A DNA stretch of 64,000 nucleotides from Chthoniobacterales bacterium (GTDB lineage: Bacteria; Verrucomicrobiota; Verrucomicrobiia; Chthoniobacterales; Chthoniobacteraceae), in NCBI GenBank assembly GCA_038207335.1, contig JBBQZX010000020.1, forward strand, positions 41,945-105,944, written 5' to 3'. How positions within the stretch are numbered: position 1 is the stretch's first letter; each line of letters starts with the position of its first letter. This document shows positions 33,001 through 36,000 of this stretch, in pieces. Position numbers: made by a program.

Positions 33001-36000
33001 AGCGAGGCCATCGCGGCCGCCTTGATGTGCTCAGGCGTGTCGAAATCGGGCTCACCTGCGCCGAAGCTGCAGACGTCGATGCCCTCGGCTTTCATCGCCT
33101 TGGCTTTGCTGTCGATGGAAAGGGTGAGCGAGGGGGTGAGACTGGTGGCGCGGTTGGCAAGTTCCATGAGATTTAGGGATGTGGGATTTAGGATTTGAGT
33201 TGTAGCCGGGGTCGCTGTTCCCGGCAGTTCGGCGGATTACTTTGCGAACCAGTCCTCAATCAGCGGCTTGAGGTTGTTCTCGGCGATTTTGATGATGCCG
33301 AATTCGCGCTGCGCGCTCTCGGGGGCGTCGGACGCGTGCGCTGCATTGACCATGATCGTCTGCCCAAATTCGCGCCGGATCGAGCCGGGAGGCGCTTTCG
33401 AGGGATCGGTCGGCCCGAGGACTTCGCGGATTTTCCGCACGGCCTCGACGCCCTGGTAGCAGATGGCGATGCACTTTTCGGAGCCCGGCGCGTTGCGTTT
33501 GTCCGACGGGCATTCGCTTGGTTTCATGCCGCACATGAATTTCACGATCTGCTCCCAATTCTCGCGGCCATTGATCGGCCCGAGCAGCTCGCCCAGCTTC
33601 TGCACGGCGTCATCGGAGAACTTGAGATTGAACTCTTTCTCCAAAAGCGGGCGTGCCTGCGAAGCGGAGCGATCCTTCAGTTTGTCCATGAGCACCTCGA
33701 GCACCGGGCCGTAAAATTCCTCGGCCTGCGCGACAGTCATGCGGTGGACTTTGAACGCGATGATCGAGAGCCCCGTGCGCGAGAAAAGGTCGATGACGCC
33801 GCCGGGTCGCGAGTTTGGAAAACGGAAGTTGTCCGGCTTGATGAGCACGAGGGTCTTCTCGACTTTCACGCCGGGCGGGAACTGCACCACGTCGTCGAGC
33901 AAGCCGCCGTCGGTGTCGGAATACTTCGCCCAGAGCAAAAGGTTCGTCCTCGCGCTTTCCGCATCCGGCGGCGCGAGCACCGCAGGCTCGAAGTAGCTCA
34001 CGACGCCATTCGCATCGGCCATGTAATCGCCATAGGTGTCGCGGATCGTCTCGCCGCTGGTGCGCTCGTTCACGATGTGGCCGACAATGTTGCGCAGCTT
34101 CGTGACGGCGTCTTCGCCTTTGAAAACGAGCATCATCACGCGAGGACGGTCAGTCTCGGTCGGCGCAAAATTCTTCAAGACATACTGCTTGATGAGCTCC
34201 TGCGTCGCGCGGTGTCGCGGCTCCGGGTCGCTCACGATACTGCCCGCGTATTTCTCCACGAGTTCCTTGCTCGGCGCGAACATGCGCGCTGCGACGATTT
34301 CGAGCCCCGTCCGCGAGATGAGCCGCGCGATGATCCCGCCGGTGCGGGACTTGCGGATCGAGTAAGGCGTGACGAGCACGTAGGAAAGTTCTTCGGCCAT
34401 AGATAAAAAGTGCCCGCGGAGAGCGCCCTGAACGTGCAGTCATTCAGGGAAAAATCGCCGCAGGCAGGGATTTTCTTCGGTTTTTTTGTGGGCGGGGAAG
34501 CTATCGGGCGAGGCAAACCCCCGTCAACGGATTTCTCCCATCGTGCGAGAGCGCCAGCGCTCTAGCTGGCGCTGATTCTCCATTTGCACTCGCATTCCCG
34601 CACTCGTGGACTTCCAACATCCGCAACGCATTTTCGCGCCAAGGGCCACGCCGCCATGACTTTCCTCTCCAAGCTCCGCAAACACCTCCCCATCCCACGT
34701 TTCCGCATCGTCCCGCTATCGCCGAACACGCTTTCGCCGAGCCGCTACGATGCGGCGGCGGCGGACCCGGCGCTGAACGGCATCATCGACGATTTGCGCG
34801 CCTACACCGGCTTCGGCGACGAGGAATTGCGCCCGCTCATCACTCGCCACCCGGACAAACATTTCGAGAGCGAATTCGCATGGGCACGCCCGCGCGACCG
34901 CCAAGAGCTCACTTGGTTTTACCGTTGCAGCCAGGCGTATCTTTTCGCGAATGCGATCCACCCCTTCGCGACGGCGCTCGAGCGAATCCCAGCGGGCCGC
35001 GTGCTCGACTACGGCGCGGGCGTCGGTTGCAACACCATCGGAATGGCACTCCGCGGCCTCGACGTGGATTTCCTCGAGATCGGCAGACTACAGGCCGACT
35101 TCCTGCGCTTCCGCATCGACCGCCGCGAGCTGAAAAACGTGCGCGAAGTCCTGCCCTACAACGCCGGGCGTTTCGACCCGATCGGCTGCATCACCGCCAC
35201 CTACGACACGATCGCAGCCATGGACGTGCTCGAGCACATCCCGGACTACCACATCGTCGTCCGGCACTTCATCGAGCACCTCGCTCCCGGCGGCCTCATC
35301 GTCGAAAACAGCCCGTTCGCCCCCGAGGCGCGCGACGTATCGATCCACGTCTCCGCGAGCATGCCGCTGGAGCAGGCGATGGACGGGATGCGGCGCCTCG
35401 AACCCGGCATCTGGCAGAAAATCTGACGCGCCGGAAATCTCACCGCCGCGCGAGCCCGGCGATCCACTTTCCCTTTCGCACGATCCGCTCAATCGCGAAG
35501 CCATTCGCCTCGAATGCCGCGACCACCTCCGCCTCCTGCGCGCGCAGGACGCCTGAGAAAATCAGCCGACCCCCGCGCGCTGTCGCTGCGGCGATCTTCG
35601 GCGCGACCTCCACAAGCAACCCGCTGAAAAGATTCGCCGCCACCACGTCCCATGTCCGCGGCGGCGTCCACTTTCGCACGTCGAGTTTCTTCACCACGAT
35701 CTTCGCGAGCTGATTCACCCGCACGTTTTCCTTCGCCACGCGCACCGCATCCGGGTCGAAGTCCCCCGCCTCCACTCGCCGCGCGCCGAGCGCTCGCCCC
35801 GCGAGCGCGAGGATCGCCGTCCCGCAACCGAGATCGAGCATCTCCCACGGCTGCGCGCGCAATTCCTCGCTCACATCCACGAGCAGTCGCAGACACGTCG
35901 CGGTCGTCGCGTGATCGCCCGTCCCAAACGCCATCCCCGCCGGAATCAAGAGCACAGGCCGATCCGCAGCCGACAGCTCCCCGCGCTCCTCCTCGCTGCC

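Follow-up and report, generated by a model that had tools for sequence, protein, structure and literature searches.

The window, a 64,000-nucleotide stretch of the genome of a Chthoniobacterales bacterium, carries on its minus strand a gene (33237..34400) for a protein of 387 amino acids, P0001, with two nucleoside diphosphate kinase (NDK) domains in tandem. The initial annotation had proposed such a two-fold protein, and the ORF call, Pfam and an AlphaFold2 model bear it out: the ORF is real and two NDK folds are modelled. With 137 diverse homologs as input, the model has a pLDDT of 96.4 and a pTM of 0.93, with the two domains in a rigid arrangement. The Pfam NDK model (PF00334) scores 134.8 bits on P0001, spread over three stretches, against a cut-off of 27, and each domain matches NDK structures with Z of 15.6-17.9. 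By fold and Pfam score the protein thus belongs to the NDK superfamily. It is not a canonical NDK in size, since it has 387 residues and two domains in place of a single domain of about 140 residues, and none of the NCBIfam NDK models reaches its cut-off on it (the best scores 121.4 against 155). In genomes the tandem gene carries the mere annotation 'ndk'. That tandem NDKs are a distinct conserved family is nevertheless supported. At least 8000 scored candidates pass as members, and a search of the ESM Atlas returned clusters of the tandem family only. The tandem form was absent from 10 viral loci and from 16 plasmid records. In the genome studied here (G000, 94.7% complete), P0001 is the only NDK found by an unfiltered six-frame HMM search, as had been claimed.

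A class I/II aminotransferase gene (32007..33167, minus strand; ORF and profile matches) lies 69 bp downstream of the tandem gene. Its best NCBIfam match is aspartate aminotransferase, below the cut-off of that model. The two genes are likely co-transcribed. A consensus scan found a terminator-like hairpin of 13 pairs with a T-run (31948..31977, minus strand), which would close the two-gene unit; the scan gave 3 sites against 3.1 expected, and this hairpin is much the strongest. A consensus scan for a sigma-70-type promoter gave no match. Past the terminator lies the gene for a 593-aa DUF6600 protein (30095-31876, minus strand) with a signal-like start and a long Lys/Pro-rich tail. On the opposite strand, a SAM methyltransferase gene (34584-35426, plus strand) separates the tandem gene from prmA, which is found upstream of the tandem gene in 29 loci. 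At L079:3746-3991 and in 12 other loci, a small DUF5679 gene lies directly upstream of the tandem gene, and these loci are mostly without the aminotransferase.

The back domain and the distribution of the two NDK forms

The back domain, D2 (residues 180-370; 33291..33863, minus strand), was delimited by alignment and structure match. The catalytic set of NDKs is taken as K12, Y52, R88, T94, R105, N115, H118, S120 and E129 (PMC7554756, in the part available), and all nine positions are intact in D2, as K188, Y230, R325, T331, R342, N352, H355, S357 and E366. They are likewise intact in D2 of 132 of the 137 diverse homologs. The NxxHxSD motif is present in the second domain only, in agreement with the initial annotation. 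H355, the predicted phospho-histidine (codon at 33336..33338, minus strand), is His in 398 of 399 homologs. The Kpn loop is conserved in D2 and variable in the front domain, D1. D2 superposes on single-domain NDKs with Z of about 17.9 and rmsd of 1.6-1.8. In its fold, the nine residues and the Kpn loop, D2 therefore resembles canonical NDKs (PF00334, EC 2.7.4.6), and the head-to-tail dimer geometry is a probable further likeness. The tandem differs from them in being a fusion of two domains, one of them dead, in the loss of F60, in its score below the NCBIfam cut-off, and in having an extended alphaA-alpha2 hairpin and an insertion between alpha2 and beta3. Judged from its residues, D2 would transfer the gamma-phosphate of an NTP to H355 and from there to an NDP in a ping-pong reaction.

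The distribution of the tandem and canonical forms was followed in three samples. In the phylum sample of 151 genomes, 68 have the tandem, 47 the canonical form, none both, two weak matches and 34 no match, so that full-length homologs do occur across the phylum, as had been stated. In the order sample of 121 genomes, 57 have the tandem only, 29 the canonical form only, 32 both and three none, 'both' being judged by the number of matches and their best E-values. In the class sample of 201 genomes, the tandem is present in 106, the canonical form in 107, both in 16 and neither in four at the thresholds used. Strict mutual exclusion with canonical ndk, as the phylum sample would have it, fails in the order and class samples. 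The earlier claim of coexistence with a canonical NDK in relatives accordingly stands for the order and finds no instance in the phylum sample. All nine inspected genomes that also have a canonical NDK retain the nine residues of D2. Among phylum-sample genomes outside the class of P0001, 34 of 100 gave no NDK match; weak matches alone were seen in G035 and G077 of the phylum sample and in G271 and G278 of the class sample. The four class genomes with neither form compare with about 44 expected if the two were independent, although kin are not independent. This near-complementary distribution lends support, though not proof, to the view that the tandem and canonical NDKs are interchangeable.

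We consider it probable that P0001 functions as an NDP kinase and that its two domains make up a covalent pseudo-dimer. Going by its residues and distribution, the tandem would most likely act as a housekeeping NDK, supplying the NDK activity of the cell where canonical ndk is absent. Several observations weigh against this reading. The base-stacking Phe is missing throughout the family (see below), and the NCBIfam score falls short. The 34 phylum genomes without an NDK match indicate that being the sole NDK is no proof of role, and the fact that 32 order genomes retain the tandem beside a canonical NDK may be a sign of a second function.

The front domain, the aminotransferase and the hairpin

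The front domain, D1 (residues 1-162; 33915..34400, minus strand; models and alignments), has the NDK fold but has lost the catalytic Lys, Asn and His. Modelled alone, it has a pLDDT of 93.5 and matches NDKs with Z of 15.6-17.2. The three residues are each found in 0 of 137 homologs, and at the canonical Lys position 399 sequences have Thr (348), Asn (40), Ser (9) or Ala (2). The phospho-His is thus missing, as first noted. The accompanying claim that the domain keeps Lys, Tyr and Arg holds for Tyr (101/137) and for the R105-type Arg (127/137), less so for the R88-type Arg (only 62/137) and not at all for Lys. A different Lys, K17, is conserved at a non-canonical site in 125 of 137 homologs. 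The other conserved residues of D1 are R19, G21, R26, Y73, R120, E138 and P139. Eleven D1 residues are retained together, all of them in 79 of 137 homologs and ten in 21 further homologs, and by alignment many of the eleven line or adjoin the old cleft. K17, R19, Y73 and E138 are mutual top covariation partners.

The head-to-tail dimer is the building unit of all NDKs (PMC7554756, available text), and the covariation between D1 and D2 bears on whether D1 takes the partner position. A mean-field analysis of 399 sequences (Neff 142; phylogeny uncorrected) placed 8 of 196 literature-defined dimer-interface pairs within the top 1% of inter-domain pairs, against a mean of 2.3 for entropy-matched sets (p ~0.01). 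Two-fold self-pairs, A38-F216 (rank 12 of 33,390) and I24-I203, are among the top interface pairs; A38-F216 had been noticed before the set test was run. Just two of nine intra-domain control pairs ranked high. The covariation, which is weak, suggests that D1 may occupy the partner position of a normal head-to-tail dimer through beta2 and alpha1. From this packing we infer an intramolecular pseudo-dimer: the catalytically dead D1 would sit in the place of the second subunit, and one chain would make a covalent pseudo-dimer with a single active site.

It is possible, though not probable, that D1 has in addition been put to use, its remodelled cleft binding a small acidic metabolite, such as an amino acid, a 2-oxo acid or a nucleotide, with a regulatory effect. 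The enzyme would be the same and its NTP supply would be tied to the adjoining transaminase; this proposal is compatible with the NDP-kinase reading. The joint retention of the eleven residues and the covariation of four of them speak for it, as does the neighbourhood. Among the 144 tandem loci whose downstream flank measures 600 bp or more, an aminotransferase lies directly behind the tandem gene in 118, of which 96 are of the type found at the P0001 locus and 22 of an AspC/TyrB type; neither type is found in any of 32 canonical loci (flanks of about 1.5 kb). The AspC/TyrB type, only 23-25% identical to the other, takes the same place in nine families (for example at L135:2552-3871; L181, inside the same clade, has the P0001-locus type). 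The link suggests that the gene is co-regulated with aspartate supply or that the conserved D1 residues have a regulatory role. However, the swap of aminotransferases maps to one or two events, and in the remaining 26 loci the neighbours are of various other kinds. In one family (L144-L147, from G160, G241, G216 and G249), D1 has shrunk to about 110 residues and the protein to about 292; its conserved D1 residues are gone and D2 is intact, yet the aminotransferase neighbour is retained, which argues against a regulatory role of D1. R120 and E138 could simply be joined in a structural salt bridge. The match of ACT domains to D1 has a Z of only about 5.4, far below the NDK matches, and Pfam ACT gave no match on P0001 at E 0.1. 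The sole NDK-aminotransferase fusion found, P0293, was rejected because its NDK half is out of frame, an artefact of frameshift read-through.

The other remodelled element is a helical extension of the alphaA-alpha2 hairpin in D2 (residues 232-279; 33564..33707, minus strand; model and alignments). The hairpin spans 60 residues in 108 of 137 homologs, 26-28 in 20, and 17 in canonical NDKs. It is short in the divergent members P0183, P0192 and P0199, which have an insertion of 30-45 residues in the D1-D2 linker; one cluster of such linker-insertion members is named from Ca. Calescamantes. Just after the extension, N281 takes the position of the base-stacking Phe. In NDKs, F60 and V112 form the base clamp and F60 stacks on the base (PMC7461546, in the part available). 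At the F60 position of D2, with the register taken from two alignments, none of the 399 sequences has Phe, Tyr or Trp. Canonical NDKs, drawn almost entirely from the phylum sample, have Phe there in 31 of 32 cases.

The loss of F60, the long hairpin and the upkeep of D2 beside canonical NDKs could mean that D2 is a phosphohistidine transferase that hands its phosphate to a different acceptor, either a protein or some non-nucleotide compound, with the hairpin as a docking arm. We regard this as quite improbable. The V112 position stays Ile or Val in 120 of 137 homologs, and its top covariation partner is K240 on the hairpin extension, a weak hint that the base clamp may have been rebuilt; L237 and K240 are the candidates for taking over from F60. 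The ribose-binding Lys and Asn are kept, the hairpin is short in 20 homologs, and just four of the 201 class genomes are without either NDK form. A working NDP kinase is still the reading that we prefer.

Origin of the tandem and its likeness to NME7

D1 and D2 have in common an insertion between alpha2 and beta3. This segment has 20-24 and 28-30 residues in the two domains, and 12-15 in the single-domain NDKs (22) and eukaryotic repeat domains (31) compared. A carefully built tree of 32 domains, with no NME7 sequences in it, places D1 and D2 together on one side of a branch (98/95); the alternative of D2 grouping with eukaryotic repeats survives the AU test (p-AU 0.057), and a larger, quick tree of 97 rows, also without NME7 sequences, did not resolve D1 and D2. 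The tandem probably goes back to a single bacterial NDK gene that had been modified before it was duplicated. A known single-domain enzyme with a long hairpin is the NDK of Pyrobaculum aerophilum (1xqi). Its alignment to D2 runs through the insertion without a break, and on D1 it extends over 147 residues. The Pyrobaculum enzyme is, however, hexameric and has an extended Kpn loop (PMC13451967, in the part available). The hairpin region alone as query gave 0 matches.

The closest solved two-domain architecture is that of NME7. Foldseek ranks 1-12 for the P0001 model are chains of doublet microtubules (TMq 0.50-0.59), as reported earlier. Their identity as NME7 had been guessed from length and context; sequence search now names several as FAP67 or NDK7. 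By VIA-align, both domains fall at once on FAP67 residues 89-378 (Z 26.1, rmsd 3.0, 278 residues, 22% identity). The rmsd of 5-8 given before is the Foldseek figure and is replaced by 2.5-3.5 over 244-278 residues, so that the structural match is closer than first claimed. Training of AlphaFold2 ended before the 2019 release of the matched FAP67 entry. As in NME7, an active and a dead NDK domain follow one another in the tandem, and the two are packed against each other in the same way. NME7, however, consists of a DM10 domain, an active A and an inactive B domain (PMC4072575, PMC13256974 and PMC7024210, available parts). Pfam finds no DM10 in P0001 or in 21 eukaryote-type members, and the FAP67 match begins only at residue 89. 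In the tandem family the dead domain comes first and the active one second; NME7-B keeps His-355 (PMC4072575, available part), whereas D1 has no such His. The tandem family also has long insertions and no colinear sequence affinity to NME7.

A two-domain ancestor shared with NME7, whether a bacterial precursor or a transfer from eukaryotes, is very improbable: the joint superposition on FAP67, the tie of D1 alone with NME7 second domains (Z 16.4-17.2) and the high place of NME7 chains in whole-sequence searches (by summing two domains; first for one D2 query) are outweighed by the missing DM10 and reversed polarity, by a D1 profile whose 60 best matches of 110 include no NME7 chain, by a family profile that gives one bacterial NDK 114 bits and the best NME7 A domain 73.5, and whose positions 1-170 are matched by no NME7 stretch among the alignments listed, and by the common insertions and grouping of D1 and D2 in the tree without NME7 sequences. 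Convergent duplication, at first raised as a caveat, is now the favoured reading. The likeness to NME7 most likely arose separately, probably because both tandems reuse the packing of the canonical dimer; we found no paper that equates the A-B packing of NME7 with the canonical NDK dimer.

Members beyond the phylum and significance of the family

The initial annotation placed the family in Verrucomicrobiota. It is present there but not confined there, and its reach into Planctomycetota and into a branch that includes eukaryote transcriptome products is new here. At least nine named family matches among 120 listed are from Planctomycetota, and distant members occur in clusters named for Ca. Calescamantes and Sphaerochaeta MAG proteins. 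The eukaryote-type branch comprises 30 proteins (P0187, P0201, P0233, P0273, P0305-P0325 and P0329-P0331, among others), 30-40% identical to P0001 and nested among Planctomycetota-type sequences. Its support is 96 (SH-aLRT), and 99/96 for 10 members under a mixture model. Three of the 30 are EukProt transcriptome products. The nine catalytic residues are intact in 29 (the remaining protein is cut short), and Pfam on 21 finds NDK only. N-terminal extensions are present in 24; the other six are without an aligned start. The first 25 residues of the 24 extensions have a mean net charge of +4.1, and in 21 of them no more than one residue is acidic; among windows from the protein bodies, 15% are as poor in acidic residues. 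We take this pattern to fit mitochondrial presequences, and the branch is probably a mitochondrial one in microbial eukaryotes. Contamination of single transcriptomes is not easily its source because the clade is diverse (median 47% identity) and bears extensions. In one member, P0306, 5 of the 21 columns that hold Leu in relatives are occupied by Gln, as if a reassigned codon had been mistranslated; each of the other 29 proteins has 0-1 such Gln.

We found no description of the bacterial tandem NDK or of its eukaryote branch in the titles and openings of abstracts that the literature search covered; the available parts of PMC10973386, PMC13318545, PMC13451967 and PMC3444138 give no account of the family. 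It is rather unlikely that the widest picture holds in full, namely, an undescribed, PVC-born NDK class of pseudo-dimers in which D1 would be a metabolite sensor coupling NTP supply to aspartate transamination, with a shape reached independently of NME7, and from which a Planctomycetota-type donor would have given microbial eukaryotes a mitochondrial NDK that belongs to neither NME group I nor NME group II.

Bacterial NDKs are treated as single-domain oligomers, and oligomerization is held to be necessary for activity (PMC7554756, available text). A natural pseudo-dimer that consists of one chain and has one active site would put that rule directly to the test. The tandem also offers a soluble stand-in for probing the role of the dead half of NME7. 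In many Verrucomicrobiota genomes it is the only NDK found, and the eukaryote branch with its presequences, if true, would represent a mitochondrial NDK that came from bacteria and has so far gone unrecognised.
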